Origin: an uncultured Gammaproteobacteria bacterium
GTDB lineage: Bacteria > Pseudomonadota > Gammaproteobacteria > JACCXJ01
Reading direction: 5' to 3'
NCBI GenBank assembly: GCA_963764725.1
Contig: CAVXTM010000016.1
Span: 256,001-320,000 of the forward strand
Length of the DNA: 64,000 nucleotides
The position numbers and the translations under genes were made by a program. Under the pieces are notes generated by a model that did not search any database, was not told the DNA's origin, and saw nothing but the letters and a program-made list of their open reading frames with translations. Below, one piece after another: positions 1,305 through 63,715 of this stretch; the stretch's first letter is position 1; each line of letters opens with the position of its first letter.

Positions 1305-1307
1305 AAT

Positions 1308-2030: not shown

Positions 2031-2034
2031 CACC

Positions 2035-4645: not shown

Positions 4646-4648
4646 GCC

Positions 4649-5194: not shown

Positions 5195-5197
5195 TCC

Positions 5198-5650: not shown

Positions 5651-5706
5651 CGCTAGCGCCCGGTACGGCCGCCTTTAATTGTTTTGATTTCACGCGCAAA
5701 GGACCC

Positions 5707-17829: not shown

Positions 17830-19273
17830 TCGACGGCCTCAAGCCCTATCCTGCGTACAAGGATTCGGGGGTGCCGTGGTTGGAAAGGGTGCCAGGCGGT
17901 TGGCGGCTGCTACGCGGCAAGAATGTCTTCCGCGTGATGGATGTTCGGTCAGAGAGGGGCGAAGAAGAGCTGCTCACGGTGTCTTCCAAGGACGGAGTGG
18001 TGCCCCGCAGTCAGAAGGCGGTGACGATGTTCAAGGCAGAGTCCTACGTCGGACTACAAGCTCTGTTGGCCCGGCGACCTTGTGATCAATAGTCTCTGGG
18101 CTTGGATGCAAGGCCTCGGGTTTGCCCGCGATCATGGATTGGTGAGTTCTGCGTACAGCGTATACCGACCGCGCCCAGAGTTCCGCGATTATGCAAGCTA
18201 CTTCCACCACATGCTTCGGTCTGCCCCGTACAAGTGGGAGTTGCAGACTCGCTCCAAGGGCGTCTGGTTGTCGCGCTTACAGCTTTCGGATGCGGCATTC
18301 CTTGACATGCCGATTCTTGTTCCTCCGCCTGATGAACAATCCGCCATCGTCCGCTTCCTCGACCACGCGGACCGGCGGATCCGGCGCTACATCCGCGCCA
18401 AGCAGAAGCTGATCAAGCTGCTGGAGGAGCAGAAGCAGGCCATCATCCACCGCGCCGTCACCCGCGGCCTCGACCCCAACGTCCGCCTCAAGCCCTCCGG
18501 CGTGGAGTGGCTCGGGGATGTGCCGGAGCATTGGGAGGTGCTGCCGCTCAAGCGAGCATTCGTCTCGATGGAGTACGTGGATCTCAGAGTCCGCGAGTCG
18601 ACACCGGCACGATCCGTCTCTTGACAATGGCGAACATCCAGAGTGACGGCGAGTAACAATCGCCTAGGATGCGGTCGAGTGTCGCTGACGAGTCGATGCG
18701 TCGCTGCTTCTGGACGCTGGCGATGCTCCTGTTTGATCGGACAGACAGCACCGAACTCGTTGGCAAGGTCGGATCGTTTGCGGGAGCTGACGCGCCTGTG
18801 ACTTCTGCTTCCTGATCATGTTCGGATGCGTCCGTGCGCAGAGCACGAACCGGAATACCTGAGCGCTATCCTCAACGCTGTCTCAGTGCTATCGACAGCC
18901 CGTCGCGATGCGCCAGTACCGAGCCTTCACGCAGTCGAACCTCAATGCCGACGAGATATCGGAAGACTGTCAAGTGTCTGTTACCGCCTCTCGACGAGCA
19001 ACGAGCAATCGTTCGAAGGCTCGAGGTCAGAGACTGCTGATCTCGAAAGGGCGATCGCCGCAGCCGCAGCGCGAAATCTCCCTCCTCCGCGAGTACCGCA
19101 CCCGCCTGATCGCCGACGTGGTCACCGGCAAGCTCGACGTGCGCGAGGCGGCGGCGCGGCTGCCGGACGAGGTCGAAGAGCCCGAGCCGCTCGACGAGGC
19201 CGAGGCTCGACGAGCGACGCGGAAGAAGCAGCCGACGATCGTCGACGCCGCACCCGAGGAGGCCGAGGCGTGA
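17826..19273 (+). pseudogene. hsdS: Type I R-M specificity subunit HsdS, frameshifted, second TRD scrambled
   Basis: LKPYPAYKDSGVPWL, PPPDEQSAIVRFLD...LKPSGVEWLGDVPEHW, EISLLREYRTRLIADVVTGKLDVR. Confidence 0.9.
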
Positions 19274-22200: not shown

Positions 22201-22336
22201 CGGAGCTGTTCAAGCAGTTCAGGACAACGAGTCGTTCCGGCGCTGGCTGACGGACACGGTGTTCGGGCTGACCTACGAATCATCGGGGGAAGATCCGCGA
22301 GCGAGCATGCGACGCAGCGATCGGTATCTCCGGTAG
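19270..22336 (+). pseudogene. hsdR: Type I R-M restriction subunit HsdR, multiply frameshifted
   Basis: GTG start TTDTSERGLE. Motifs FELKN, QHSAGSGKS, IIIDEAHSSQ, FAFTATPK, KFQTGYDEP, QTLSRLNR across several frames. Confidence 0.92.
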
Positions 22337-31031: not shown

Positions 31032-31856
31032 TTAAACCATCGTTCCGAGAATGACGCTGGATGCTTTGAAGATCGCAACCGCCCGTTTACCGGCTTCAAG
31101 CCCAAGCGACTGAACGCTTGGATTGGTCACGATCGCGGCGATGCGCCCGCCGCCATCAATATCTAAGACCACCTCCGCGTTTACCGCTCCAGGAATCACA
31201 GAAGCAACGGTTCCATGGAGTTGGTTGCGGGCGGAAAGCTTGGCTCCATCAAAATCGCTAGCGATGATGATGGAAGATGCCTTAATAAGTGCGAACGCTT
31301 GACTGCCGACCCTCAGTCCGAGTGCCTCTGTGCTTTCTCGGGTCACAACGGCCACGATCCGAGTGTTCTTCCCCACTATAAGTTCGATTTCGTCGTTGAC
31401 CGCACCGCTCTTCACGGCAGTGACGACTCCGGAAAACTGGTTTCGGGCACTGCTTTTCATATTCAGGGTTCGCAGCAGATTAAGGTCGGACGTGAGGTCG
31501 ATGGCTTCATTGCTCAGCATTTGCACGAACCGTCGATGGGCCGCTTCGATCTGGCCGAAACGCTCGACGAGTTGAAGGCCTCGCGGTGTCAATTGCGTCC
31601 AGCCTCCGCCTCGGCCGCCGCTGCTTCGTTCAACCAGCGGTTCACCCGCCAGATTGTTCATGGTGTCGACCGCATCCCAGGCGGCCTTGTAGCTCATGCC
31701 AATCGCCTTGGCCGCCTGGGTGATCGAGCCTTTCTCCGCGATGGCGCGCAACAACCCCACGCGGCTACGGCCACCTAGGTTTTCGTCACCGACTTTCATC
31801 CAGACCGCGCCGTCCAGTTGAATGGGATCGTTAGCTTGATTGGCTGTTTTGGCCAT
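31032..31856 (-). CDS. modE: Molybdate-responsive regulator ModE
   Basis: GSITQAAKAIGMSYKAAWD HTH and two SARNQ-initiated TOBE domains. Confidence 0.95.
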   Translation of the reverse strand: MAKTANQANDPIQLDGAVWMKVGDENLGGRSRVGLLRAIAEKGSITQAAKAIGMSYKAAWDAVDTMNNLAGEPLVERSSGGRGGGWTQLTPRGLQLVERFGQIEAAHRRFVQMLSNEAIDLTSDLNLLRTLNMKSSARNQFSGVVTAVKSGAVNDEIELIVGKNTRIVAVVTRESTEALGLRVGSQAFALIKASSIIIASDFDGAKLSARNQLHGTVASVIPGAVNAEVVLDIDGGGRIAAIVTNPSVQSLGLEAGKRAVAIFKASSVILGTMV

Positions 31857-32054
31857 GAGAATTCCGGATAACCGTTACGGCATCTGTTGCTTGCGGGCGA
31901 AAGCAGACTGGGAACTCGTCACAGTTCGCGCATCGACAAGACCTTGCACATGGCATGGTATTCATCAACATTCAAGCCCAGCGTGCGAACCGAGGCCGGT
32001 AGCCTGCCGTCTCGTGCGTGCTGCCGCACTGCATCGATGGCGCGGCGCTCAAGG

Positions 32055-32753
32055 CTATCCTGCTACCAGCGCATCATGATCCACTGTGTCCAGAATCGCT
32101 CGGCCGTCTTGAATGTAAATCACGGCATCTGCAAAGCAGTCAACATCCTCTTCGTCGTGAGAAATCAGAATCAGTGGAATGTTGAGCTTGGCTTGAAGCT
32201 CCGCCAGTTCCTGACGCAAATGCGCTCGTAGCCCGCGATCAAGCGCGGCAAGCGGTTCATCCAGCAGCAGTGCGCGGGGTTCGGCCACAAGACCACGGGC
32301 CAAGGCGGCCCGCTGACGTTGTCCTCCCGACAGCTGCTCGGGGTATTGATGCGCCACGGGCGCAAGGTGGAATGTTTCAAGCCAGCGGGTTACGGAGTCG
32401 TGCCGCACATTGCGTTTCGGATTCAATAGGCCGGGATGCAGCGCGAACGCAATGTTCTGAACCACCGTGAGGTGAGGGAACAGCGCGTAGTCCTGAAATA
32501 CGTAGGCAAGCTCACGCCGCTGTGGCGGCAAGTCGATGCGTGCGCGATGATCAAACAGGGAAAGCCCTTCTAGTCGAACATGTCCATCGTCGGGTGCGCT
32601 TAGACCAGCGATCATCTTCAGCGTCTGACTTTTGCCTGCACCTGACGGCCCAAACAGAACCAGCCGCCGTGCATTGCTGCGAAAGCGCACGTCGAGCTTG
32701 CAGCTGCGTTTGGTGTTCTCAAAGTGCTTGCGCACATCAACATCCCAAATCAT
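32055..32753 (-). CDS. modC: Molybdate ABC transporter ATPase
   Basis: GPSGAGKS, FQDYALFPHL, LSGGQRQR, LLLDEP. Confidence 0.93.
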   Translation of the reverse strand: MIWDVDVRKHFENTKRSCKLDVRFRSNARRLVLFGPSGAGKSQTLKMIAGLSAPDDGHVRLEGLSLFDHRARIDLPPQRRELAYVFQDYALFPHLTVVQNIAFALHPGLLNPKRNVRHDSVTRWLETFHLAPVAHQYPEQLSGGQRQRAALARGLVAEPRALLLDEPLAALDRGLRAHLRQELAELQAKLNIPLILISHDEEDVDCFADAVIYIQDGRAILDTVDHDALVAG

Positions 32754-32763
32754 GGAGTCATCC

Positions 32764-33438
32764 TCATGGCTGACCTGCAATTCGTCCCGGCGCCAGGCGA
32801 CCGGCGGCAAGCAGCACCGTGATGCAGGTCACCGATGTCACCAGCACGAGAAAATTCGCAACGTTGTCCTGCCCTGCTTGAACCGCCTCGTAAACCGCAA
32901 TGGACAAGGTTTGCGTTTTCCCGGGAATGCTTCCTGCTACCATCAACGTTGCACCAAACTCCCCGGTCGCCCGGGCGAAGGCGAGCAATACCCCCGCCAA
33001 AATGCCGCGCCATGCCAAGGGCAATGTCACCCGGAAAAATACCGCTGCCTCGCTGATACGGAGAACGCGCGCAGCCTGTTCAAACTGGGGATCAACGGCT
33101 TCAAACGCCGCCCGTGCCGACTTGAAAACCAGCGGGAAGGCGACGATGGTGGCCGCAATCACGGCTCCCTGCCAGGTAAAAATGAGGTTGATGCCGAAGG
33201 TCTCCTGAAGCCAGCCGCCAATCGGTCCGTGACGTCCGAGTAACACGAGCAGATAGTAGCCGAGCACGGTGGGAGGCATGACCAGGGGCAAGGTCAGAAG
33301 TGCGTCCAATAGGTCGCGACCTGGAAACCGCTTGCGCGCCAGCAAAAAACCGATGGCGACCCCAAATGCCAAGTTGAGAACCGTAGCCCAACCCGCGACT
33401 TTGAGTGTCAGGCTCAACGCGATCCAAGCGTTTTCCAT
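32764..33438 (-). CDS. modB: Molybdate ABC transporter permease
   Basis: LPLVMPPTVLGYYLL and FARATGEFGAT. Confidence 0.95.
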   Translation of the reverse strand: MENAWIALSLTLKVAGWATVLNLAFGVAIGFLLARKRFPGRDLLDALLTLPLVMPPTVLGYYLLVLLGRHGPIGGWLQETFGINLIFTWQGAVIAATIVAFPLVFKSARAAFEAVDPQFEQAARVLRISEAAVFFRVTLPLAWRGILAGVLLAFARATGEFGATLMVAGSIPGKTQTLSIAVYEAVQAGQDNVANFLVLVTSVTCITVLLAAGRLAPGRIAGQP

Positions 33439-33447
33439 CGACAGAGA

Positions 33448-34191
33448 TCAAGGCTTGCCGAAACCGTACTTCGCGAGCACGGCTTGCGCTTGACGGGAAT
33501 TGACGAAGGCGACGAACTTCTGCGCGACTGCGTGGTTGGCGCTGGCGGCGACCGGTGCAATGGGGTAAAGAATCGGGAGATCAGTCGGCACGGTGATAGC
33601 TACTCTGACCTTGTCCGGCATGATGGCGGCGTCGGTCGCGTACACAAAACCGGCGTCCACCTCTGAGCGCGCCACATAGTCAAGTGCCTGTCGCACAGTC
33701 TGCGCGCCGATCATTTTGGGCTCGATGGCCGACCAAAGCCCCGATTTCTCCAGGGCGCTTTTCGCATAACGGCCTACCGGAACACTGGCCGGCAGTCCGA
33801 TAGCGATCCGCTTATAATGCGCCTGCAAGAGGTCGTTCAACGCCTTCAGTGTGTTACCACCATCCGAAGGCACAACAACGACCAGCGTGTTGGAAACGAA
33901 GTTGTGCCTTTCGTCTGCTTTCACAAAACCCTGTGCTTGCGCTTGATTCATCGTTTCTTGATCGGCGCTGGCAAATACATCAGCAGGGGCGCCCTTGGCG
34001 ATCTGTTGTAACAGAGCCCCCGAAGCGCCGAAGTTGAACTGCAGTTTTACCCCTGGATTTTGAGGCTCGAAGAGTGAGGCCAACTCACGAAAGGCGTTGG
34101 TCAGGCTGGCTGCCGCCGACACGATTAGTTCTGCGGCAAGTGCCTGCCAACTGAGAAGTAAACCAAAGAGAGCTACAAGAAGGCGGGACAC
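33448..34191 (-). CDS. modA: Molybdate-binding periplasmic protein
   Basis: Signal peptide, VSAAASL, FGASGAL, ADVFASA, VPVGRYA, VYATDA. Confidence 0.95.
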   Translation of the reverse strand: MSRLLVALFGLLLSWQALAAELIVSAAASLTNAFRELASLFEPQNPGVKLQFNFGASGALLQQIAKGAPADVFASADQETMNQAQAQGFVKADERHNFVSNTLVVVVPSDGGNTLKALNDLLQAHYKRIAIGLPASVPVGRYAKSALEKSGLWSAIEPKMIGAQTVRQALDYVARSEVDAGFVYATDAAIMPDKVRVAITVPTDLPILYPIAPVAASANHAVAQKFVAFVNSRQAQAVLAKYGFGKP

Positions 34192-44879: not shown

Positions 44880-45428
44880 TTAGGCGGGAGCGCGGAGTAG
44901 CCGCCGGATGAGATTCTCAATTTCGTCCTTGCGGACTTGGCCGGGCTGGGTGAAGGTGATTCTCTTGTTACGATCAATGATCACCGTGTAGGGTAGCGCG
45001 CCGCTCGTATTACCGTAACTCAGAGCGACTTGGATGGCCTCCCACTCGCCGGTCAGCGTCGGGTAATTGATCCCGGCCTTGTTCGCGAATTCTTGCGTCG
45101 TGCTAAGCTCATCGATCGCGATACCCACGATCTGCAAGCCTTTGACCTTATAGTCTTCTTGAAGCGCGATGAGATCCGGGATTTCTTTTTGGCACGGAGG
45201 ACACCAGGTGGCCCAAAAGTTGAGCAGCAAAACTTTTCCGTTCCACTCGCTGATGGGGCGGCTTTCGCCTCTGAAGTCCTTGAGTGAAAAATCGGGCCGC
45301 GCCTGCCCCACCAGGGTCGAAGATGAGGAGTCCGTCCGTGCGCCCAGGTGTTCGCGGAGAAGATAGCCCCCGCCTCCGGCGACGATCAGAAACAAACAAT
45401 AGAATCCAAAACGGTAAGCCGCGCTCAA
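44880..45428 (-). CDS. TlpA family disulfide reductase
   Basis: LLNFWATWCPPCQKEIP, LPYTVIID, N-terminal TM anchor. Confidence 0.92.
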   Translation of the reverse strand: MSAAYRFGFYCLFLIVAGGGGYLLREHLGARTDSSSSTLVGQARPDFSLKDFRGESRPISEWNGKVLLLNFWATWCPPCQKEIPDLIALQEDYKVKGLQIVGIAIDELSTTQEFANKAGINYPTLTGEWEAIQVALSYGNTSGALPYTVIIDRNKRITFTQPGQVRKDEIENLIRRLLRAPA

Positions 45429-47275
45429 CGGCGCAACACCCGATCGAGGTGCGAGCGAAACGTCTCCGGCTCGACGAACCCGACAAGACGTTTGTTGCGA
45501 AGCTCGGTACCGTCCGGTGTGTAAAAAAGCAAGGCCGGCGGCCCGAAGACTCCGAGGCTCGCAAGCAGCTCGCGGTCCTCCTTATCATTGGCAGTCACGT
45601 CCACTTTGATAAGCGTTAATTTGCTAAGTTGTTGACCGACAATTTGGTCGGCAAAGGTATGTTTTTCAAGCTCTTTGCACTCCACACACCAGTCCGCGTA
45701 AAGGTCTACCATCACCGGCTCGGCACTATCGCGGGCCGCGCGTAACGCCTTTTCCAAATCCGCCGCGCCTTTGACCCGTGCGAAGCTCAGCGTGAGTGGC
45801 GTCGCGGTGGATCCCTGCGCCAAGAGTGTGGCGCCCGCGAATGGACGCAACATATCGGTGGCCCCCGCGGCCGCGCCGACGATTAAGAGACCGCCGTAAG
45901 TCAAAACCAAAAACCCGGCGCCGCGCGTCAGACGGTGACCCCATGACGCGGTTTTATGGAAGAGATCGAGGGCCCCGAAGAAAATCGCCCCGGTCGTCAA
46001 TAACAGCCCCCATAACAATACGGTGAACGCCGGCGGCAGCAAGCGTTCCAGCATTAAGACTGCGACTGCGAGCATCCCAAACCCGAAGAACGCCTTGACC
46101 TGTTGCATCCAGGGCCCGGCTTTGGGCAGTAGCTGCCCGGTCGAGGTACCCACCGCTATCAGCGGCAATCCCATGCCTATGCCCAAGCAAAAGAGCGCCA
46201 TCCCGCCGAGCACCGCGTCACCAGTCTTACCGATATAAATCAAGGCCCCGGCCAGAGGCGGCGCCACGCAAGGTCCGACGATCAGCGCGGAGAACAATCC
46301 CATCGCCGCGGTTCCCTGCAAGGTTCCGCCTGCTTGCGCGTTGCTCGCCCGGGCGAGGCGCGTCTGCCAACTTGGCGGGAGTTGTAGCTCGAACCAACCG
46401 AACATCGACAAGGCGAGGCCGACAAAGACCGCAGCAAAGAACACCAGCACCCACGGATTTTGAAACGTCGCTTGCAAGTTGTGGCCGAAGCGTCCGGCGA
46501 TCACCCCCATGAGCGCGTAGGTCGCGGCCATCACCACGACGAATACGCTCGATAAAATAAATGCCTTGCGCGTAGTTACGTGCTCGCCTTGACCGGCGAT
46601 GATTCCGGAGAGAATCGGGACCATGGGAAACACGCACGGTGTAAACGCGAGGAGGATCCCGAACCCCGCGAACATGGCCAGCGTCGCGAGCACGGCGCCG
46701 CTTTCGAGTTGCCGCGCCAACGCATCGTGCTCGGCAACGGGTTCGCTTGCTTCCCCGGAAGCGGCGCCGGCCGCCACGTGCGCTGGCAATCGCAGGCTGA
46801 GCGTTTTCTGCATCGGAGGGTAGCAGATCCCGTCGTCGGCGCAGCCCTGATACCTAAGGGTTAAACCGACCTCGGCCTCGCCGGGGCCTGGGCGTCTGAG
46901 CGACAGCGGGACCGTGATGGACCCGGTATACACCTCGACGGATCCGAACTCCGGATCTTCCTTGAAGTGCCCCGAGGGAAGATTAACGCGCCCGAGCCGG
47001 ACGTCGCCGTCGGTCAGGTCAAATCCGAATTTATCCTTATATAGGTAATAACCGTCGGCGATGTCCCAGCGCGCGGCAAGGGTCACCGGATCTTTGATGT
47101 CGACCGTGATCCGAAATGCTTCGTCGGGAGGTAAAAACTCCCGGCGGGCCGGTTCGCCCGCGAAACCGCGCTTAAAATCCTCGAATATATTTGCCGCCCC
47201 GCGTTGTTCGTCGGCAAACACAGGTAGCAACGTTCCAAACAACCAAACGAAGCAGACAGCGCTGACGGTCTTCAC
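45425..47275 (-). CDS. dsbD: Thiol:disulfide interchange protein DsbD
   Basis: YQGCADDGICYPP, FTPCVFPM, GPCVAPP, YADWCVECK. Confidence 0.96.
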   Translation of the reverse strand: MKTVSAVCFVWLFGTLLPVFADEQRGAANIFEDFKRGFAGEPARREFLPPDEAFRITVDIKDPVTLAARWDIADGYYLYKDKFGFDLTDGDVRLGRVNLPSGHFKEDPEFGSVEVYTGSITVPLSLRRPGPGEAEVGLTLRYQGCADDGICYPPMQKTLSLRLPAHVAAGAASGEASEPVAEHDALARQLESGAVLATLAMFAGFGILLAFTPCVFPMVPILSGIIAGQGEHVTTRKAFILSSVFVVVMAATYALMGVIAGRFGHNLQATFQNPWVLVFFAAVFVGLALSMFGWFELQLPPSWQTRLARASNAQAGGTLQGTAAMGLFSALIVGPCVAPPLAGALIYIGKTGDAVLGGMALFCLGIGMGLPLIAVGTSTGQLLPKAGPWMQQVKAFFGFGMLAVAVLMLERLLPPAFTVLLWGLLLTTGAIFFGALDLFHKTASWGHRLTRGAGFLVLTYGGLLIVGAAAGATDMLRPFAGATLLAQGSTATPLTLSFARVKGAADLEKALRAARDSAEPVMVDLYADWCVECKELEKHTFADQIVGQQLSKLTLIKVDVTANDKEDRELLASLGVFGPPALLFYTPDGTELRNKRLVGFVEPETFRSHLDRVLRR

Positions 47276-54027: not shown

Positions 54028-54510
54028 TTAGGCTACCTTCTTGACTTCCCGCACCAAGGCGGCGCAGGCCTCGGCACAGTCCGCACAGCTCTGGTGCTTG
54101 GAGGCGTGTTTGCGGCATTCCTTTTCGCAGTCTGCACAGACCGCGGCACACGCGTTGGCGAACGCCTTCGTGTGTGCCGAATTACTTGCGCTCAACTGTG
54201 CCAGGGCATTGCACGCCGCGATGGTCTCTTGTACCGCGACCGCGCAGCTCGCGAGCGACGTGTCGCCGCCCTTGAAGGTGTTGATGCAGTGATTGAGGCA
54301 AGCGTGCCCCTTGGCCATGCAGGTTTCGGCGGCCATCATGAGGCCGCTGTACTGCCAGCTATGGTGATTGGCCGCCGCGAAGGCTCGCCCGGTGCCGGTC
54401 ATGAGCGCGGCCGCGCCCACCGCCGTGGCGCCGGCGAGGAATTTCCTGCGCGCGGACTGACAGGGGGCGTCACCGGTCTCCGGATGGGTATTTGAATGTA
54501 ACTCGGACAT
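54028..54510 (-). CDS. Tat-exported four-helix-bundle copper storage protein (Csp1/2-like)
   Basis: AAGGAG RBS, Tat motif ARRKFL, 12 Cys in CxxxC/CxxC spacing in the mature domain. Confidence 0.88.
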   Translation of the reverse strand: MSELHSNTHPETGDAPCQSARRKFLAGATAVGAAALMTGTGRAFAAANHHSWQYSGLMMAAETCMAKGHACLNHCINTFKGGDTSLASCAVAVQETIAACNALAQLSASNSAHTKAFANACAAVCADCEKECRKHASKHQSCADCAEACAALVREVKKVA

Positions 54511-54772
54511 ATCAGCTCTCCTTTCAATATGGATGGATAAAGGGTTGCGCAGGCGTGTAACCCCAGTGTCGCTAGGGTGTTGCGGCGCTTTCGGTTGATG
54601 GGATGGCGGAGGAGAGCTGATTTTCCTGCCCATCCCGGACGAAAGCGTCGCACCTTCTCGGTACGCGGATCGCACGGAGGCGCAAACCCGCCAGGGATTA
54701 TATCAGACCGCTAGATCTCTGGATACTATTTATCTTCTATCTTCGCCGGGCGGCGTTCTGATGGCGCTGCGC

Positions 54773-56326
54773 TCAACGAACCAACAGATCGGTACCGTAC
54801 CAGCCGACGATGACGTCCCGGTAATGTTCGGCCTTCCGGGTTTGGAGTCGTTCGAGGGGATTGAAATTGTCCGTCAGAGTCACGCCTTGGGTCTCGTTCA
54901 CCGCGACGATCCGGTTCTTCAGCCACGCTGCTTGCTCTGCTCGGAGTCCCGGGGAGTTGAGGTCGATGGGTCGGCCAGCCGCGAGGAAGATGAAGTCGTT
55001 GAAATCCTTGCCGGGTTCGGAAATAAAGACCGAGTGATGGGGAAACACCTGCGCGATGGTGCGCCCGACGGACGCCAGGGCGGCATTCTGGCCGCCCTCC
55101 GAAAAGGCCACGAAATTAAGAGCGAGAATGCCCTGGTCTGACAGGAGCCCGCGCAGTTGAGACAAAGTCTCGACGGTCAAGAGGTGCACCGGTTCCGATC
55201 CTCCGGTGAAGCAATCATGGATGATCAAGTCGTAAGGGCCGGTCAAGCGGCCGATTTCATAACGTGCGTCACCCACCATGGCTTGGCCCGTGGGTTCAAA
55301 CCCAAAGTATTCGGACGCGGCGCTCGCCACTGCCGGATCGATCTCCAAAGTGTCGGTCACGATCCCGTAGCGGTCACGCAGCGTCGTTGCCATATGGCCG
55401 GCGCCCTGGCCGATGAGCAAGGCCCGTGTCATGTTGGGCGCCAAGGCCGGAATCAAATGAACGATCTCCTGGTAGGTGAGCCGGTTGTCGCCACTCGATA
55501 TGCTGGCGGCGCCGATCGTCGAAGCATCCGACATGAGAAGACGAAGATCGCCTTCTCTTTGATCAATCACCCGCACCCAACCGTACAGGCTTTCCCGCTC
55601 GGAACGGATTTGAAAGGGTTCCCCGCCGGTGTAAGCACGCCCCGCGCCGATGGCTTGGGGCAGCAATCCGATCCCGATCGCGGCCAAGAGAACACTGGGC
55701 AGCACGGCGGCGGTTCGCCCCAAGCGCTTTTGCTCATAGATCGCCACGGCCACGGCCAGCGCGAGCAGAGCTATACCCAGACCGATCAGGATCTGGCGTG
55801 AGCCCACCAAGGGAAACAGAAAGAAGCCCAATACCAAGGTGCCGACAACGCTCCCGAGCGTACTGACGGCATAGATCGAGCCGGCGCTGGAACCAACGCC
55901 TTCCAAGCGTGAGGTCGCGAGCTTGATGGCATAGGGCCCAACCATGCCTAGCATAGTCAGACTGGGCGAGAACAACACCAGCGCGCTCACGAAGGCGCCC
56001 GCTCGCAGGCCCAAAGGGTCGGTCGCCATCAAGACCGGCCGGGTTACCCACGGGATTAAGAGTGTAAACAGGGCCGCGAGTGAAATGACGAGTGAAAGTC
56101 CGGTGCGCTTCGCCCGGTCAGCCCACCGGCCGCCGGCAAAATAACCAATGGCAAGCGCGATCAACGCCACGGAAATCAGCGATGACCAGACGTAGAGGCT
56201 CACGCCGTAGAACGGGGCGATGATGCGCGTACCCAGAAGCTCGATTACCATCACCGCCGCTCCGGTCAGGAACACGGTCAGATAAAGCCCGGCACGTTCG
56301 TAGACGTGCAGTGGTTTGTAAGACAT
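54773..56326 (-). CDS. Fused MFS-like membrane / spermidine synthase-like methyltransferase
   Basis: GAAVMVIELLGTRIIAPFYG, AGSIYAVSTLGS, LLIGQGAG, LEIDPAV, GDAR, DLIIHDCF, LTDNFNP. Confidence 0.88.
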   Translation of the reverse strand: MSYKPLHVYERAGLYLTVFLTGAAVMVIELLGTRIIAPFYGVSLYVWSSLISVALIALAIGYFAGGRWADRAKRTGLSLVISLAALFTLLIPWVTRPVLMATDPLGLRAGAFVSALVLFSPSLTMLGMVGPYAIKLATSRLEGVGSSAGSIYAVSTLGSVVGTLVLGFFLFPLVGSRQILIGLGIALLALAVAVAIYEQKRLGRTAAVLPSVLLAAIGIGLLPQAIGAGRAYTGGEPFQIRSERESLYGWVRVIDQREGDLRLLMSDASTIGAASISSGDNRLTYQEIVHLIPALAPNMTRALLIGQGAGHMATTLRDRYGIVTDTLEIDPAVASAASEYFGFEPTGQAMVGDARYEIGRLTGPYDLIIHDCFTGGSEPVHLLTVETLSQLRGLLSDQGILALNFVAFSEGGQNAALASVGRTIAQVFPHHSVFISEPGKDFNDFIFLAAGRPIDLNSPGLRAEQAAWLKNRIVAVNETQGVTLTDNFNPLERLQTRKAEHYRDVIVGWYGTDLLVR

Positions 56327-56353
56327 GTGGATTGAACAGGCCTTTACCGCCCC

Positions 56354-57328
56354 TCAGGGTTCATCGAGCACGGCAAAGGCCGGCGCATCCCGCGCGCGGC
56401 TCGGTGGTGCCACGCATCCTTCGCTACTGGCTGGCGCCGCGAGCGAGCCACCGGCTTCACCGTGCACGTCTACCCAGAAATGCGGCAAACCCATGCCCGC
56501 CAGCCATGCCGGGCCGGCAGCCTCCTTGAGCATGGCAATCGTCGAGGCACTGCCCGCGATGAGACACAGATCGCCAACTACGCTGACCGACGCCAAGTGG
56601 CGCACCGGCCAACCGGTTTTCGGGTTGAGGATATGACCGTAACGCACACCATCGAGCACGATGCAACGCTCGTAGTCACCGCTACTGGCAAGCCCGCCGT
56701 GGTGCAACGAGACCGTTTGTATGAGGGCCCCCGGACGACGGGGATGGCGTATGCCTATCCGCCACGGGTTGCCATCCGGTCGCGGCCCGATGACCTTGAT
56801 GTCGCCGCCTAAATTGACGTGGCCGGATCGGGCGCCGGCCTCGTAGCATAGCGTTGCTGCCCGATCGACGGCGTATTCCTTGACGACACCGCCGAAATCA
56901 ATCTCCATGCCCGGCAGTGGAAATTCGAGAACGGGAGGTGTCCAGCGGAGCCGGTGCCACCCGACCTTGCCGAGTAGGCTTTGGATCTGCGCCCCATCGG
57001 GCAGCGCGCCTCGATCGAAGCGCCACGCGCGACGCAATATACCAGAGCTGATGTCGAAGAGCCCATCGCTCTCACGGTAACAGGTCGCGGCGTAATTGAG
57101 CAGCCCAACAGTCTCTTGGTCTACGGAGATGCTTCCCCCACGGGATGCCACGCGATTGATCTCCGATAGAAAGCTGTCGCTGCGAAAGCGCGAATAACGC
57201 GCTTCCAGCCGGTCGACTTCAGCGATGGCGATGCCCGCAATGCGCTCGGCTTCTGCATGGCTTGTGGCAAAGAGCTGGATCTCACAGGGAGAGCCCATCG
57301 CCTTGAAAGCCAAGCGGTAAGACCTCAT
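56354..57328 (-). CDS. apbE: FAD:protein FMN transferase ApbE
   Basis: FKAMGS, IDFGGVVKEYAVD, VNLGGD, ASSGDYER, HILNPKTG. No lipoprotein signal is visible. Confidence 0.92.
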   Translation of the reverse strand: MRSYRLAFKAMGSPCEIQLFATSHAEAERIAGIAIAEVDRLEARYSRFRSDSFLSEINRVASRGGSISVDQETVGLLNYAATCYRESDGLFDISSGILRRAWRFDRGALPDGAQIQSLLGKVGWHRLRWTPPVLEFPLPGMEIDFGGVVKEYAVDRAATLCYEAGARSGHVNLGGDIKVIGPRPDGNPWRIGIRHPRRPGALIQTVSLHHGGLASSGDYERCIVLDGVRYGHILNPKTGWPVRHLASVSVVGDLCLIAGSASTIAMLKEAAGPAWLAGMGLPHFWVDVHGEAGGSLAAPASSEGCVAPPSRARDAPAFAVLDEP

Positions 57329-57493
57329 GCCGTTCATGTTCAAAACCACGTTCGCGGTCGATGTAGCCCGGGTCGAACGCAGCCCCGCCCCGCCGCGGTG
57401 AGTGCCCGCGACTAGTCCCGGTCGCTCAAGCGGTGGCGGAACGTAGCTACGCCACATATTCTCAGGCACATGACGCACGCTAAACAAGGCCCA

Positions 57494-58498
57494 TCAAAAC
57501 GTCAGGCTGAAGCTCACGAACAGTGAGCCGTCACGTTCGAGCTGGAACCCGTTGAAGTCGTCCTCCACGGGTTGCAGCCACTCGACGCTCAAACGGTTGT
57601 CCTTAAGCCCGGCGATCGGAATCTCGGCGCTGAGCCCGAAGCCCACGTCCCAGAACTGCCCGCCGTAGTTCTGCGGGAAGTCCACCGGGCTCAGTTCCGA
57701 GTGCACGTCGTTGAACTCGCCCGTGATCTCCCCTTGCGTCGTGTAAACGCCGCGCACCGAGGCGGAGAGCCAGTCGAACAGGCCGATGCTTCCCCAGGCG
57801 GTGGCCTGGAACTGATTGCCCAACGCATAGCCCGACTCGTTCGCGTTCTCGAGGCGATCGATGCCGCTCACTTGCCCCCCCCACGACCAGCGCCCCCACG
57901 CGCCCGTGTAGGTGAGGTTCGGCAGCAGATCCCAGGTGCCGCTGCCGAGCTGCATGCCATAGTGATAAAAGCCTTGATCCGTTTGATGGCTGCGTCTGAG
58001 CTGCTCGTCGACGGAGCCGGTCGGTGCGCTCACGCCCAGAGCCAGGTGCAGGTGATGTCCGGGCACATCCAACAGTTTGAAGAGCGCGTACATGGAGGTG
58101 TCACCGACGCCGCCCGTGGCTTCGGAGTGGAGCACATGGTGCTGTTCACTGCTGTCGAGCTGAGCGCCTTCGAGGGCCTGCATCGACATCTCCATGTCCA
58201 CGAACTGCGGCATGAGCATCAGGTTCAGCCAGTCGGTCGGGGCGTACATGATGTCGATCATGTGCATGTTCATGGTGTGGTCGACCGGCTTCACTTTGCA
58301 CGGCACCGAGCCACAGCCATTGCTGGTGATGACGGCATCGCCGACGGCGTCCGAACCGCGCAGGATGTTGCCGTCCTGACTGTGGTACATGTAGCGGTAG
58401 TCGACCATGAAGTCGCCGGCCTCGGGCAGCATGTGGTCGAGCATGACACCCGCCGGCGCGTGGCCGTGGGCGTGCGACGTGGCTATCGTGGGCGTCAT
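57494..58498 (-). CDS. His/Met-rich outer-membrane beta-barrel (probably the C-terminal half of the DUF3570 gene)
   Basis: HGHAPAGVMLDHM, HTMNMHMIDIMYAP, YGMQLGSGTWD, terminal Phe (SFSLTF). Confidence 0.75.
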   Translation of the reverse strand: MTPTIATSHAHGHAPAGVMLDHMLPEAGDFMVDYRYMYHSQDGNILRGSDAVGDAVITSNGCGSVPCKVKPVDHTMNMHMIDIMYAPTDWLNLMLMPQFVDMEMSMQALEGAQLDSSEQHHVLHSEATGGVGDTSMYALFKLLDVPGHHLHLALGVSAPTGSVDEQLRRSHQTDQGFYHYGMQLGSGTWDLLPNLTYTGAWGRWSWGGQVSGIDRLENANESGYALGNQFQATAWGSIGLFDWLSASVRGVYTTQGEITGEFNDVHSELSPVDFPQNYGGQFWDVGFGLSAEIPIAGLKDNRLSVEWLQPVEDDFNGFQLERDGSLFVSFSLTF

Positions 58499-60181
58499 GG
58501 TGCGCCGCCGGCAGCGGACAAGGCTGCGTCGAGGCTGACATTCAACGCCGCATTGACCTGATAGTAGTTGAAATCGGCATAGTCGCCCTCACCACCTCCG
58601 CCGAGCTTGAGCCCGCCCTCATGGGTGTAATACTCGAAACCGGCCTCGAGACTGATCCCCCTAGCGAATTCCTTGCTCACGATCAATCCGCCGCTCAAGG
58701 CCCCATAGCCCGACAGGCGGTGGTCGCTGGAGAAGTTGGCCGGAAGTTTTTTCGGATCGAACGGGATGATTGTGACGTCTCCCGTCAGGTCATCAAAAAT
58801 GAACTGTTTGGTATGCTTGCCTGGAGATGAGAAACGGCTGATAGAAATCGGCGGCGTCTTGCGAGTAATAGCGAATCCAGGGCATCACGGTCCAACCCCG
58901 GCCTAGCGGTTGACCCCAGCTCGACTCGAGGGTGTGGGCATCGATCCCCCAATCATCGGAGTAGAAGCGGTATCCGAGATGCAGGGCCGCATTCAATGGT
59001 TCGACATACTGCACATAGCGCGCGTCCCAAGTCCATTGGTTACGCGTATCGGGCCGCTGTTCCAGGAGGGCCTGAACTTGCCCAAAAAACCCGCCGGGAG
59101 GTGCCAAGAACTGTTGCTCGGGATCGATGAACGCGACCTCCATCACCTTGTAGGGGTTCGCCAGATATCCTGTGCTGCGGGTATAACCGAGGGTGGTCTC
59201 GATGAGCGAGTCATTGGTCAGGACCTGCGTCAGACCAAAACGCGTAGCCCAATCCTGTCGATTGCCCTCCAGGGTGTCGATGCTTAAATCCGTCGTGTTT
59301 GGCACCGGCGTCTTTTCAATCTGGTCCGTGTATGCGGAGGTATCGATGTAGGGAAGAGCGTCGTGATCGAGTATGGCCTCGGTGTCGCTGGCGGTGTAAC
59401 TCAAGCCCAGGTTCAAGGTGGTGCGCTTCTGATTGAGGTCCCAGCGCCCGCCCAGGCTGCCCCATCGCGATTCATAGTCGTTCTCCAGGGAGATGCCACC
59501 GCCCACATCCAGCGCCGCCTCGTTCCACTCGTAGCTCAGCCCGAAGTCCCCCTGCTTGCGCGCCTCGGGTGAGGCGAAGGAGATCGTATCCACCAATTGC
59601 CCGTTTTTTTGAAAGAGCTGGTTACCATCCTCGTCGAAGAGTACTTCGAGCGGGTTGAATTGAGAATCGAAAAACAGATCACCATTGATGAAAGGCGTCG
59701 CCCCGGAGACCCCATCCGGGGCTGTGGGACAATTCCCCCCCGAACAATTAAAGCCACCGGAAACAAGTCCCTGCGGTGCGGTGGCGATCGGCGTGGCCCC
59801 GGACCAGGTGTCCTGGACGTAGTTGGCAAAGAACTTCAGCCGATCGAAGAGCGTGAGGCTAGCGCTGCCATGGAGGCTGTCCACCAGGATAGGATCGAAC
59901 GCGCTCTTCACGCCGAAGAGGTTACGTTCACTCTCTTGGTAGCGGCCATACTGAAAGTTGAAATCGTCACCCTCGGCGGCATGAGCAGGTGAGGGAGTCA
60001 GGCCGGGCAAGGCCAGAGCGGCGGCCGTCAGCGCCCGCGAGGATGCGCTTGCCTGCGTCAATGATTGCGGTCCGGTGGCCGACCGCCGCCCGAAGCGACG
60101 CGGTAAAAGTAGCCCTGCGAGGTGCCGAAATGCGCCGCGCAGGCTAGTAACAGCCACACCCGCCGCCGGCGGTGGACCCAC
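58495..60181 (-). CDS. DUF3570-family outer-membrane protein, frameshifted near 58800
   Basis: LTAAALALPGL, YQES, SLENDYES, GYLANPYK, RPDTR, YRFYSDDWGIDAHT, RYYSQDAADFY. Continues in the next frame as FSSDHRLSGYGALSGG. Confidence 0.85.
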
Positions 60182-60368
60182 CGGCCAATGCGGCCTCGCG
60201 GCTCATGTAGGTGTGCACGCGTAAGGCGCGCAACGCGGGGTTGGGTTCCAAGGCCATGTGCGGCTTGGCGAGATTGCCGCGTTCCCACGGGGCTACCGGC
60301 GCGCAGCCCGGTAGCCCGATAGCCAGCCCAAGTAGAAGCGCCGTCAGCACCCAGTTAGATTTTTTCAT
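60144..60368 (-). CDS. DUF4266 lipoprotein
   Basis: Lipobox LPGC, VAPWERGNLAKPHM, SREAA.GG...GGGCGCY. Confidence 0.9.
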   Translation of the reverse strand: MKKSNWVLTALLLGLAIGLPGCAPVAPWERGNLAKPHMALEPNPALRALRVHTYMSREAALAGGSTAGGGCGCY

Positions 60369-60398
60369 ATAGGGCTTTTCGTCGAACCGACCGAGCGC

Positions 60399-60893
60399 CT
60401 ATCCGCCCTCGGGACGCTCCGCCAACAACTGTTCCACCAGCCCACGGAGCTGCTCAGCCTCTCCGCGCCGAAAGCCTAGGTGCACGTGGCGAATGATACC
60501 CTGGCGGTCCACCAGATAGGACGACGGCATCGCTTGGACGCCGAAGTCTCGGGGACACTGCCCGTCCGCATCGACAGCGACGGTGAAGCTGGCCGGGTGT
60601 TTTTCAAGAAAGGCCTTCGCATCGTCGGGTTTCTCATCCAAGTTGATCCCCAGAACGTGCAAACCCTGTCCCCGCAACTCGCTGTCCAGATCGTTCAAGA
60701 ACGGAAAGGACTGTGCGCAGGGGGAACACCAGGAGGCCCAAAAATCGACATAAACAACCTTGCCGCGCAGTTGCCGCATGTCATAGCGTTGTCCATCGCC
60801 GACCGGGGTCAATGAACAGTTAGGCGCCGCCTGACCAGCTTCGAAACTATAGACGTTCGAATAAACCGCGAGCGCCAGTGCGGTGAGAAGCAC
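60399..60893 (-). CDS. TlpA family disulfide reductase
   Basis: VVYVDFWASWCSPCAQSFP and AMPSSYLVDR. True start uncertain. Confidence 0.9.
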   Translation of the reverse strand: MLLTALALAVYSNVYSFEAGQAAPNCSLTPVGDGQRYDMRQLRGKVVYVDFWASWCSPCAQSFPFLNDLDSELRGQGLHVLGINLDEKPDDAKAFLEKHPASFTVAVDADGQCPRDFGVQAMPSSYLVDRQGIIRHVHLGFRRGEAEQLRGLVEQLLAERPEGG

Positions 60894-61015
60894 CTATGAG
60901 CGGGTTGCACTAATTCGCAACGGCAGGAAGTCATAGTCCTTAGCCATCATCTTCGGATCCAAGTAGCAGCCCGCGACCAAGCGCCGCCAAGCGCCGAGCT
61001 CAGCGAATCACCGGC

Positions 61016-61458
61016 TTACTGATTCTGCGTCTGGTAATTGACGTCCCGGTGTGAACCCCCGTAGCGGTTTCGCAATGGTAATTCGAGCGTGTAATTATTT
61101 ACGCCGCCGCGGATTTATCGACGTTATACGATGTACGCCCCGACGCCACTGTTATTGTAGCACCTTTGAGGACTATACGCTGCGTTTCCACCGATGGGAT
61201 CCGTGCTGGTCGTGGAATGCCGCCCTTGTCGCGTCAACCTGCACCAGTGACGAGCCCGCAGTGTCGTCCTTCACGCGTGATCGTGAAGACGGACAGAGTT
61301 CGTGGAGCACGTGACGGGTAGATCATCGGTCGCGCCCGCCGCGGAAAGGAGCGATCCGATCTTTGAATCGCCAGACGCGATACGGCGTGTGCCTACCGCG
61401 ACCAGCAACGATGCGTGCGAATGCGCTCTTAAAGAAAGTATTTTTCATACATATTCAT
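61016..61458 (-). pseudogene. Small secreted protein ending HC...HTGTSI...QNQ, heavily frameshifted (not in ORF track)
   Basis: AAGGAG RBS and ATG at 61458. Fragments AAGATD, VTCSTNS, STDPIGGNAAYSP, GVGAYIV, NYTLE, YHCETATGVHTGTSIT, QNQ-stop. Confidence 0.65.
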
Positions 61459-61586
61459 AATAGTCTCCTTCAGTCGTTAATCGGGAAAAACGGTGACCTG
61501 GGTATACTAGAGAAGCACTGACGGTCGGGTACGGCGGGAAATCGCCGGCTCGAGGAGAGCGGAGCCTGCCCGTTACGTCCCACTCG

Positions 61587-62561
61587 CTACTCACGTCGCG
61601 GTGCTCGCACGGCGCGATGTCCTATCTCCTCCAGTTTCATGGCGGCCAATACACGCACCGTCTCGTCGGTGTCAGCCAGCGCGTCTTGAAGTAGTGCGGC
61701 GCTCTCCGCATCTGTGCCGGCAGCTGTCCACCGCCATCAGCCTCACCGAAGCGTCGCTATCGCCCAGGGCACTGCGCAGCACATTCATGGCCTCGGTCTC
61801 CGCCATCTTTCGCCAAGGCGTAAACGCCCTGCGCCCGCACGCTCCCGTCCTCGTCCGTCAGCGCGGTCCGAAACACCGCTTGTACCGCAGGATCGTTGCG
61901 TTTGCTGCTCGCAGCCAGGCTGCCCAGCGCCTGCATCCGCGCTTCGGATCATCGGCCGTGCTCAGGTCCATGAGCATATTGAATCGTCATGCTCTGCCGC
62001 CGCGGGATCTTTACTCGTCGCTTGCTGCGGGGCCGCCCGCGAACATTCCGCACCGGTGTCTCCACAACGACCCCATTGCTACTACTGCTACCGTCGGGAG
62101 GTCCGGGCGGCTCCTAAAAGCCACACGTCCGAAGGCAGGGATCGGTCGCAGACTCCGCTCTCTCGGGGGCATAGCGCACTATGCTGCGCGGCGTCACGCC
62201 CAAAAAGACACTCGAGTGCACGCGTGAGGCGTCATGCGCTGGCAGGAGAGCCGTGACCACGCCTTCGGGCGTCACTACGTCATGGAAGCGGGTACCCGTT
62301 TTCTGCCGAATTCGCCGAGCACCTCTGTCCACGGGGCCCGCGTGACATTCAAGCTCATCAGTGCCGCGATGGAGCTCGATTTCCACCGATGCGGAAGGCC
62401 CTGCTTTCAAAAGCGCTCGAGACGGCGTGTCAGGCCCTGCGATAACATGGCTGTTCCACAGCATCATTCCCGGCACCAACGAAAGCAGCCCGACCTCCGC
62501 CAGCCCGTCTCTTACGCCGCGTTCGAGTACTGCTCATCGAATAAACACCCTGCGTGGCCAT
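61587..62561 (-). pseudogene. HEAT-repeat protein, heavily frameshifted
   Basis: Minus-strand fragments LTDEDGSVRAQGVYALAK, LRSALGDSDASVRLMAVDS, LADTDETVRVLAAMKL. Confidence 0.7.
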
Positions 62562-62620
62562 GTCTGCTGTCGTTCTAATTCTCCGACCGTTCGGAGTCTA
62601 TGATTCGTAGCCGCGCTTGT

Positions 62621-62780
62621 AAATGCGACAAATTGTCGCACCCCCACACTCAACATCGAGACCGGGGAGCGGCAAGTCACCGGTACGCTATCCTGCTTTT
62701 GCCTTTCGTTAATCCCGTAGTTTATATAATAGAACTCTGGTCATGGAATCAGTTCCGGGGTGCGACAATTTGTCACATTC
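62621..62780. promoter_or_regulatory. Two RegA/PrrA-like operators in the divergent promoter region
   Basis: TGCGACAAATTGTCGCA (62624..62640) and TGCGACAATTTGTCACA (62761..62777). Confidence 0.7.
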
Positions 62781-62925
62781 ACACGCGATGCTCAGTGAGA
62801 TAGTCTTCTTAGCAGGGAACAGCTAGTGATGCAGGGTACGACCAGTTGTCTCTGGCGTGCTTTTTAGTTGGTAGAAACCAGTTATATCTGTTCTGTGAAT
62901 CCATAAGTCAATACAGGAACCATTT

Positions 62926-63715
62926 ATGCCAAGCTTAAACATAAGAAGACTGACGATGTGCTCGCTGACGACCTTGCTGTGCACCGCAGGGCCGAATGTC
63001 TTTGCCCACACCGGCGTTCAGAATGCGGCTGACCGCAGGGACGACGACCTATAACGGTTTCACGATAACGCACGGCTGTGGCGGCCATGATGAGACGAAG
63101 CCTCCGTTGAAGGTGTTGGGACAGTCGGCGGTGTTTCCGTTCGGAGTCGCCGTGTGGACGAACCTCAACCCACCGGTGAAATCATACCGACGGGTGGCCA
63201 GGGTATCGTCAGCGAGGACAGATGATTTTATCACTCTCAATGTCGGCGGTATTCAGGATAACGATCCCTTCGCAAAAACAGAGGAAGAGACGGATGATCT
63301 TGAAAACGTGCGTGCGCTCAATTGGAAGAATGGCAAACTAGCGACCAACCTGGTCGGTATACCCGAGTGGCGGGCATCGGCGCCGACCATTCTGGATAAT
63401 TGCGTGTCGGCATTGCACGTGCGTATCGCGGTTGCCAACTGGTGCAAAAAGAACGCAAACGAAAAGAACGACCATGCTAACAACCGGGCCGACTGGTGGT
63501 TCACGGGACCGGACCAGACCGGGAGCACGCAGTTCGTCGATCCCGATCTGGTTCAGGAGGACTTCTGGACGACATTGACCGTTAACAACCCGGGCAACCC
63601 GGACGCCCCTGCATGCACCGGGGAGACTCGCGAGGTTGCGGTCCAGCCGACGGGTGCGGACATCGATACCTACCTGCCATACAAGCCGTTCACCAAGAAT
63701 CCGGGACCGTATTGA
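62926..63715 (+). CDS. Secreted YcnI/DUF1775-like putative copper-binding protein (frameshift near 63027)
   Basis: RBS AGGA and ATG 62926 give signal MPSLNIRRLTMCSLTTLLCTAGPNVFA followed by HTG. Shifts into ORF 62996..63715 containing FTITHGC. Confidence 0.65.

Follow-up and report, generated by a model that had tools for sequence, protein, structure and literature searches.

A DUF3570–channel fusion cluster of copper-monooxygenase bacteria as a candidate system for reductive copper uptake

What is the function of the co-oriented envelope genes that lie near one end of a 64,000-nucleotide stretch from an uncultured gammaproteobacterium, and is copper their substrate? The stretch (GenBank assembly GCA_963764725.1, contig CAVXTM010000016.1, positions 256,001 to 320,000; hereafter the window) carries a minus-strand cluster whose central gene, when intact, joins a DUF3570 β-barrel to a second barrel domain rich in His and Met. 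The supply of copper governs how methane and ammonia are oxidised in soils, caves, lakes and treatment plants, and for the passage of copper through the outer membrane of methanotrophs and nitrifiers without methanobactin this cluster is a concrete candidate. A first annotation, made without database searches (the original prediction), had proposed that electrons pass from a TlpA protein through the cysteines of a DUF4266 lipoprotein to a flavinylated barrel that reduces and imports copper. Our analysis suggests that copper handling of some kind is the probable function. The more specific reading that we favour is that Cu(II) is reduced at the outer membrane by flavins that receive electrons from thiols, and that this is coupled to entry of Cu(I), supplying bacteria that have copper monooxygenases; in our judgment it has a little less than an even chance of being right.

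The core of the cluster is already known. Profile searches of the open reading frames (ORFs) of the window, run with the Pfam and NCBIfam libraries at family cut-offs, placed four core genes on the minus strand. They encode an ApbE FAD:protein FMN transferase (56354–57337; PF02424, 239.6 bits), whose ORF is open to 57487 and whose likely start is MNGMRSYR at 57337; the DUF3570 domain of the fusion (58495–60181; PF12094, 324.2 + 30.8 bits), which lies in two frames (58793–60181 and 58495–58800), 58793–60181 covering profile positions 2–354 and 58495–58698 positions 372–426; a DUF4266 lipoprotein (60144–60368; PF14086, 72.9 bits) with the lipobox LPGC and a C-terminal GGGCGCY, the CGC of which is encoded at 60150–60158; and a TlpA/ResA/DsbE-like periplasmic thioredoxin-fold protein (60399–60893; PF08534, Redoxin, 93 bits) with CSPC at 60717–60728. 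In NCBIfam the last of these matched ResA (103.3 bits), TlpA (58.8 bits) and also DsbE, in each case under the family's own cut-off. The DUF3570 domain has two SGAT flavinylation motifs, at 59792–59803 and 59696–59707 (residues 127 and 159 of the N-terminal piece), and both GA[ST] sites are conserved in 32 fusions.

Clusters of ApbE and DUF3570 genes with genes for thioredoxin-like and DUF4266 proteins were reported by Méheust et al. (2021, eLife, PMC8238504), 227 with DsbD and 316 without it, and the DUF3570 protein of Chlorobium luteolum was flavinylated by its ApbE in E. coli at two [S/T]GA[S/T] sites. The statement in the original prediction that these clusters had no characterised function therefore understates what is in print, where flavinylation by ApbE was demonstrated experimentally; in the text of that paper electron flow from DsbD was proposed and the function was left open. 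The idea of a route from TlpA via DUF4266 to a flavinylated barrel fits this published model of DsbD, thioredoxin, DUF4266, DUF3570 and ApbE. As far as the published description goes, the window cluster and that system have in common the four core families, the two [S/T]GA[S/T] sites, the C-terminal CXC of DUF4266 and the proposed thiol-to-flavin route. They differ in that DUF3570 is fused here to a second barrel, probably lined with Met and His; that the thioredoxin is of the Redoxin/TlpA type (PF08534) rather than PF13899; that DsbD lies 7 kb off, whereas it is in the cluster in 227/543 published DUF3570 clusters; that ApbE, extracytosolic in the published definition, has no signal peptide here; and that the present clusters have accessory genes of their own (YcnI-like, small β-sandwich, HEAT and MFS/spermidine synthase) and are concentrated in bacteria with copper membrane monooxygenases (CuMMOs). 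The main text of PMC8238504 does not use the word 'copper', and its sole 'outer membrane' refers to siderophore receptors, although its supplementary tables may list these clusters. We found no literature linking DUF3570, DUF4266, PF13557, COG4313 or ApbE to copper or methanotrophs, and the copper-linked, channel-fused, CuMMO-associated form is not described in the papers that were searched.

What is new relative to the published core is the fusion of DUF3570 to a COG4313/FapF-like channel with a Met/His ladder. In the window the channel domain appears as a separate 334-residue ORF (57494–58498, minus strand) containing 16 His and 16 Met (9.6%). The original prediction had described a DUF3570 barrel with a His/Met-rich barrel; the two are one fused gene in relatives, but in the window three frame changes interrupt it. 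DUF3570 was found in 10/14 other genomes of the window's family, of which six are unpublished (G005, G008, G009, G010, G012, G014) and four public (G003, G004, G011, G013), the latter giving the same picture alone. In 9/10 of these relatives DUF3570 and the His/Met domain form one uninterrupted frame of 829–854 residues, counted from a conserved ALTAAAL signal-peptide motif and ending in Phe, and the tenth enters a masked stretch. A phmmer search with the His/Met domain against 1.84 billion representatives gave 1920 relatives with E ≤ 1e-3, of which 341 had E ≤ 1e-30; among the 150 best, about 64 were at least 800 residues long. When 42 of the relatives were scanned against Pfam, all 16 that were longer than 580 residues had DUF3570 ahead of the His/Met domain, while PF13557 (Phenol_MetA_deg) was above its cut-off in 6 of the 26 shorter ones, and one short relative (P0139) had a copper-chaperone domain, PCuAC, in front (PF04314, 110.8 bits).

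The His/Met domain is predicted to be a COG4313/FapF-like 12-strand outer-membrane channel. Its AlphaFold model, built with 36 sequences, had a mean predicted local distance difference test score (pLDDT) of 91.8 and a predicted TM-score (pTM) of 0.89, and the best Foldseek matches of the model were FapF (5o65/5o67) and 4rl8 (TM 0.57–0.72, E 4e-14 to 8e-12, identity 14–16%). A search of PDB sequences returned weak FapF matches only (E 0.59 with the single sequence, 0.0017 with a profile). The ESM Atlas also indicated PF13557 for the domain, and relatives at 31–40% identity match that family, as do 13/16 standalone genome copies. The likeness to the COG4313 channel Pput2725 (4rl8) and the amyloid transporter FapF (5o65) thus lies in the predicted fold and in the PF13557 matches of some homologues; unlike them, the window domain carries a Met ladder and a His-rich N-terminus and sits behind another barrel, and it is below the Pfam threshold, at the low identity just given.

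The ladder itself (HTMNMHMIDIM, 58247–58279) is strongly conserved. Across 36 homologues H22, M31, M80, M84 and M104 do not vary, M19, M74, M76, M78, M94 and M96 reach a conservation of at least 90%, and the conserved Met residues form an MxMxMHMxxxM...MxM pattern on neighbouring strands. In two of three strands the Met face also has Asp, Asn and Lys and the opposite face Ile, Leu and Tyr; in the third (98–108) the pattern is reversed, with Asp and Glu on the face opposite Met. Because polar residues share the Met face in two of the strands, the ladder probably lines the channel lumen, as judged from the residue pattern rather than from coordinates. Variant architectures were also seen among the relatives. 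Two to four DUF3570–channel fusions stand in tandem at each of four loci of Methyloglobulus and a related metagenome-assembled genome (MAG; L047, L055, L058, L087), and four giant fusions of 1639–2800 residues (P0019, P0027, P0029, P0052) have 900–2000 extra residues before the main DUF3570; in two of them (P0019 and P0029) the start resembles a signal sequence (ALTxAAL) and there is one SGAT near residue 81–88. In 3/16 genomes with a standalone channel (L109, L120, L123), the channel gene lies beside genes for a PilS-like histidine kinase with six transmembrane segments and a Fis-type response regulator.

The original prediction had proposed a joint structure prediction of DUF3570, DUF4266 and TlpA; here the DUF3570 domain (residues 47–530, with a 32-row alignment) was folded with DUF4266 residues 22–74. 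The interface score ipSAE was 0.85 in 3/3 runs, against 0.03 for the best of 3 controls, with a partner pLDDT of 66 or more and with 71% or more of the contacts common between runs. The mark applied to this score is reached by 116/157 solved complexes and 2/215 mismatched pairs, rates that are only rough here, where our own alignments were used. Many strands make contact through alternating residues (53/55/57/59, 355–367, 378–390, 486–494 and 513–521), and because of this alternation the lipoprotein is modelled inside the barrel lumen. The prediction favours binding and supports DUF4266 as a plug of the DUF3570 barrel. DUF4266 has 19 invariant columns in 32 homologues, including C71 and C73, and its GGGCGCY tail is invariant; in the predicted complex this tail lies outside the confident contacts. 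We know of no comparable complex. LptD–LptE is a barrel and plug, and is an analogy only: in both cases a lipoprotein would sit in the lumen of an outer-membrane β-barrel, but there is no homology, the cargo is different, and the plug modelled here ends in a redox-type CXC.

Reducing power for such a plug could come from a full-length DsbD (45425–47275, minus strand), which lies with a second TlpA-like redoxin (44880–45428, minus strand) 7 kb off the cluster, with unrelated genes in between (44880–47275 together; DsbD_TM 314.4, DsbD_N 113.2 and AhpC-TSA 92.5 bits). By analogy with the published model, the pair is a possible electron source for the cluster.

Two new protein families, one YcnI-like and one a small β-sandwich protein, accompany the cluster. 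Intact relatives show the first, encoded divergently, as a secreted protein of ~260–310 residues with a mature end HTGV...THGCGG; in 23 sequences the first mature residue, H28, is invariant, as are T29, H49, C51 (in HGC) and C185. The intact form had no Pfam or NCBIfam match at E ≤ 1, including to PF07987 (DUF1775), but the ESM Atlas gave TM 0.63/0.70 to the DUF1775 (YcnI) cluster with a feature score of 0.87, which is a lead only. The divergent protein for which the original prediction had noted an N-terminal His thus appears to have a YcnI/DUF1775-like fold. YcnI of Bacillus subtilis is described as the copper-binding protein of the ycnKJI uptake operon. From what is reported of it, YcnI resembles the present protein in being secreted, in its invariant mature N-terminal His and, tentatively, in the fold indicated by the ESM Atlas; the protein here is ~100 residues longer, has the HGC motif and two probable disulfides, and no Pfam DUF1775 match, and no YcnJ/CopCD partner was seen here.

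The second new family is a secreted protein of ~150 residues ending in YHCQTA..HTGTxxxxQNQ. In 64 sequences two Cys are invariant and the His of HC and of HTGT nearly so, and most members, but less than 90%, have a mature N-terminal His. Its model (pLDDT 90.2) is a generic β-sandwich, and assignment as a recognisable cupredoxin, CopC or PCuAC was dropped after the fold search gave generic β-sandwiches only. Several loci have two or three tandem copies of it. The HEAT protein of relatives is exported, has ~300–340 residues and carries C-terminal repeats (HEAT_2, 7.7e-14); an STN domain was not called for its N-terminal part, where there is no such Pfam match.

At the far end of the cluster, on the minus strand, are genes for a fused MFS-like membrane domain/spermidine-synthase-like protein (54773–56326; NF037959, 201.4 bits vs a cut-off of 40, spanning profile positions 23–494 of 517) and a twin-arginine translocation (Tat)-exported four-helix-bundle copper storage protein of the Csp1 family (54028–54510; TIGR04401, 118.3 bits vs a cut-off of 100). 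The Csp1 ORF is open to 54675, with a likely start MSELH at 54510, and the protein has an RRKFL twin-arginine motif and 12 Cys past the predicted cleavage site. Csp1 of Methylosinus trichosporium OB3b is a Tat-exported Cu(I) store for particulate methane monooxygenase (pMMO). The window protein is like it in its TIGR04401 match above cut-off, its Tat motif and its Cys-lined helices; what differs is the adjacency to a DUF3570 cluster, found in the window's family only.

Comparative genomic evidence supports the cluster as a unit. The fusion alignment was used to search one genome per species, giving 141 relatives, and the best 78 loci were tallied, 36 of which have at least 5 kb on both sides. 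The same gene order occurs in these 78 loci of other genomes, hence beyond chance, so that the co-oriented minus-strand cluster of the original prediction is both confirmed and conserved. DUF4266 was present in 71/78 loci (32/36 of those with full flanks), the small protein and the TlpA-like protein each in 64/78 (29/36), ApbE in 57/78 (27/36), the HEAT protein in 36/78 (14/36) and the MFS/spermidine synthase in 32/78 (16/36). Two neighbours at single loci are taken as chance: a small metal-binding protein, SMBP, 8 kb from the fusion in Nitrosomonas oligotropha Nm75 (L063:175–516), and an MbnB/TglH/ChrH-family enzyme with DUF2063 and DoxX proteins, 8–10 kb from the fusion in Methylotuvimicrobium sp. 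KM1 (L062:20284–22465).

The fusion is strongly enriched in CuMMO bacteria, where it is neither universal nor exclusive. By record titles, the best 78 of the 141 loci comprise 40 of Methylococcales type (Methylovulum, Methyloglobulus, Methylomonas, Methylobacter, Methylotuvimicrobium, Methylomicrobium, Crenothrix, among others), 19 from Nitrosomonas, 9 that belong to the family of the window itself (MAGs from caves and deserts that bear the label Chromatiales or Gammaproteobacteria) and 10 others. PF02461 (PmoA/AmoA) was matched in the window's genome (G000; 3–4 places) and in 14/14 other genomes of the family vs 1/26 other class-level relatives, and the co-occurrence with pmo/amo organisms that the original prediction had suggested examining holds. 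The PmoA/AmoA-like genes of this genome lie at C16:488849–489547, C18:234387–235094 and C3:34673–35361; C16 is the contig of the window, and its copy lies ~170 kb past the end of the window. An even sample of the class had the fusion in 7/401 genomes, ammonia monooxygenase (AMO) in 14/400 and both in 5. Four of the seven fusion genomes belong to the window's family (G000, G004, G009, G011), one to Methylococcales (G352, identical to G529 of the Methylococcales sample), and two are G217 and G179; because four of the five co-occurrences come from the window's own family, this sample adds one independent lineage only. When the two main clades were sampled directly, the fusion was found in ~40/101 genomes of the Methylococcales order (that of Methylovulum; ~40%) and in 35/101 Nitrosomonadaceae (35%), in 27 of which amoA was found. 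The carriers include cultured strains, such as Methylovulum psychrotolerans Sph1, Methylotuvimicrobium sp. KM1, Methylomicrobium sp. wino1, Nitrosomonas ureae Nm13 and N. oligotropha Nm45 and Nm75.

Taken together, these data lead us to favour reductive copper uptake, because the core is the published system with both flavinylation motifs, the fused channel is rich in conserved Met and His, one relative of that channel is fused to PCuAC, and the range centres on CuMMO bacteria, and also because of the YcnI-like neighbour with its invariant N-terminal His, the adjoining Csp1, the plug prediction and a DsbD only 7 kb away. In the scheme that we infer for the electron-transfer steps, the reduction, copper as the substrate and the direction of import, the periplasmic TlpA-like thioredoxin, fed by DsbD, would reduce the CXC tail of DUF4266, which would sit in the lumen of the DUF3570 β-barrel. 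DUF3570 would bear two FMN groups attached by ApbE, and the reduced flavins would convert Cu(II) to Cu(I) at the outer membrane. Cu(I) would then cross the fused COG4313-type barrel, lined with conserved Met and His, and be received in the periplasm by the YcnI-like protein, with a putative His brace, by the small β-sandwich protein and, in this lineage, by Csp1. A bolder version, in which the fusion is a previously unrecognised two-barrel outer-membrane machine with a threaded lipoprotein, surface reduction of Cu(II), inward conduction of Cu(I) and flavin attached before export, seems to us doubtful.

There is a eukaryotic parallel in logic. Yeast Fre1/Ctr1 takes up copper reductively, using a haem/NADPH reductase. 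The resemblance is an analogy only: in both cases Cu(II) would be reduced outside and Cu(I) would pass a Met-lined pore, but the proteins are unrelated, the membrane is different, and a flavin and thiol relay would operate here. If the bolder version is correct, bacteria would have their own equivalent of the reductase-plus-Ctr1 route, and the cluster would fill a gap in the account of pMMO/AMO copper supply in the absence of methanobactin. A role in copper supply would also provide a first function for the orphan DUF3570/DUF4266 flavinylation system, and would add two new accessory families and a fused double barrel of unusual kind, plugged by a lipoprotein.

Whether the system still operates in the window's own genome is a separate question. 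Four cluster genes are frameshifted here. The fusion gene changes frame near 58803–58812, 58502 and 58475, as shown by tblastn with intact relatives. The small-protein gene (61019–61462, minus strand) and the HEAT gene (61590–62561, minus strand), each a remnant or mis-assembled, have several frame changes apiece, the former with four stops in one frame and the latter in pieces in three frames, so that tblastn found two or three frames with stops. The divergent YcnI-like gene (62926–63715, plus strand) changes frame once, near 63031, and gave two tblastn pieces, in frames +1 and +2, with its signal peptide and AHTGVQ in one frame (62926–63030) and the remainder in the other (63032–63715). No ORF of at least 60 residues properly spans the HEAT gene, the small-protein gene or the start of the divergent gene in 60900–63050. 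The original prediction described the family rightly but read through the frame breaks of this DNA: its HEAT, small secreted and N-terminal-His proteins are intact in relatives but have no open reading frames in the window, and its HC..HTGT..QNQ motif, present in relatives, has its parts in different frames here; its Csp, MFS/spermidine synthase, ApbE, DUF4266 and CSPC-containing TlpA genes, by contrast, are intact where it had placed them.

With the fusion and three accessory genes frameshifted, what this genome shows is either a mis-assembled or a decaying form of the system. We give a decaying pseudogene cluster, a proposal that applies to this genome only, nearly the same weight as an assembly artefact. 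Real decay is suggested because the cluster is patchy within the genus: DUF3570 was found in only 4/8 other genomes (not in G001, G002, G006 or G007), so the cluster is dispensable. Also in favour of decay, rpoB, rpoC and the housekeeping genes of the window are intact, and a second accessory system, the type I restriction-modification genes hsdM/hsdR (15388–22250, plus strand), is likewise fragmented into many overlapping ORFs in different frames (HsdM_N 15388–16353, N6_Mtase 15908–17380, HSDR_N 19345–20232, T1R_D3 21198–22250). On the other hand, consensus error in strain-variable DNA is suggested because there are many single-base indels (~18) and little other damage, a pattern that resembles long-read metagenome consensus errors. 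The fusion keeps 85% amino-acid identity; ApbE, TlpA, DUF4266, MFS/spermidine synthase and Csp1 are all intact; and metagenome contigs of relatives, from cave and sediment, are exactly one base off the window at 58475, 58499, 61123, 61450 and 63033. Among sequencing runs compared with the stretch, none came from the source sample, and the best word share was 0.17. The PmoA/AmoA-like copy on contig C3 of this genome is split in two pieces, like the frameshifted cluster genes.

Returning to reductive copper uptake as a property of the family, a number of results weigh against it. The YcnI-like gene is present in just 26/78 loci (7/36 with full flanks). Csp1 was rejected as a core member, since it adjoins the cluster in 2/78 loci (1/36), both of the window's own family; the original prediction had treated it as a syntenic member, and it is a lineage-specific neighbour only. 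Lack of synteny of the flanking copper genes, which that prediction had taken as grounds for giving up its proposal, was found for the Csp gene alone. The flanks of 8 well-assembled fusion loci had no consistent further copper genes, and no copper gene lay within 4 kb of 16 standalone channel relatives in other Gammaproteobacteria. The fusion was not found in 38/65 amoA-positive Nitrosomonadaceae or in 9/14 AMO-positive genomes of the class sample; conversely, pmoA/amoA was not found in the fusion-bearing Myxococcota, Flammeovirgaceae, H41-bin200 and SZAS MAGs, nor in G217 and G179. At the level of the proteins, the window His/Met domain had no Pfam match at E ≤ 0.01 and no NCBIfam match, searches of PDB sequences with profiles of the YcnI-like and small-protein families produced no useful match, and the fold search with the small protein gave no copper-protein match, the best being a calpain-7 C2-like domain (E 8e-4).

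ApbE poses a further difficulty of the same kind. Judged from its sequence, the cluster ApbE has neither signal peptide nor lipobox, which would leave the flavin supply of a secreted barrel unexplained, and the periplasmic scheme of the original prediction does not account for it. The conserved AMG[ST] motif comes only a few residues past the start. In 25/43 evaluable homologues the upstream stop is less than 25 codons away from AMG[ST], which leaves no room for a signal peptide, and the others had no signal-peptide-like segment after the likely start, three having a hydrophobic 12-residue window that was judged to lie upstream of it. Either attachment of the flavin takes place in the cytoplasm, ahead of export, or ApbE enters the periplasm by another route.

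Some of these points fit a general envelope redox module unrelated to copper, acting in iron reduction or uptake, in repair of oxidised proteins or on another extracellular acceptor, with the Met/His content and the range reflecting habitat and gene exchange. The published work that left the function open pointed to iron, VIT1 being next to 25 DUF3570 clusters according to its main text (PMC8238504), which also counts against copper uptake. Standalone channel relatives that are widespread without copper neighbours, fusions in genomes where pmoA/amoA was not found, and a small protein that is a generic β-sandwich also speak for such a module. It does not readily explain the conserved Met ladder and His-rich linker, the PCuAC fusion in one relative, the YcnI-like neighbour with its invariant N-terminal His, or the occurrence in two unrelated CuMMO clades at ~40% and 35% vs 2 of ~390 genomes elsewhere, and we consider it unlikely.

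Copper might, alternatively, move outward or be buffered, the Met-lined barrel releasing or sequestering Cu(I) (compare PcoB/CusC-type proteins) while the thiol/flavin module holds copper or copper-binding cysteines of the periplasm in the reduced state; cells with very large copper pools would thereby be protected. The Met/His ladder, PCuAC fusion, range and YcnI-like fold serve this explanation as well as they serve uptake, nothing in these data fixes the direction of transport, and the Csp1 that adjoins the cluster is a storage protein. TlpA-type proteins reduce the cysteines of copper chaperones and of CuA, which is also in its favour. However, no P-type ATPase, RND (resistance-nodulation-division) system or multicopper oxidase was seen in the window cluster or in the flanks of the 8 loci, the published account of Bacillus connects YcnI-type proteins with copper acquisition, and enrichment in organisms with high copper demand suits uptake at least equally, so that we rate outward or buffering action as distinctly unlikely. 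Least probable, and to our minds remote, is a COG4313-type channel for a hydrophobic or other organic molecule on which the flavin module acts: the best structural matches are indeed 4rl8 (COG4313) and FapF, COG4313 proteins are implicated in uptake of hydrophobic molecules in the account of PMC4493636, and the 13/16 standalone relatives noted above match PF13557, but identity to the solved channels is just 14–16%, the residues that define the subfamily are Met and His rather than a hydrophobic lateral path, and the accessory genes point to copper.

Two other gene groups of the window may be recorded. Cytochrome c maturation genes for CcmB, CcmC, CcmF, a CcmG-like redoxin, CcmH and CcmI/CycH occupy 192–6924 on the plus strand, and a ModE-like regulator (HTH_1 + TOBE) lies at 31032–34191 on the minus strand with an ABC transporter (binding protein, permease and ATPase) that probably carries molybdate.

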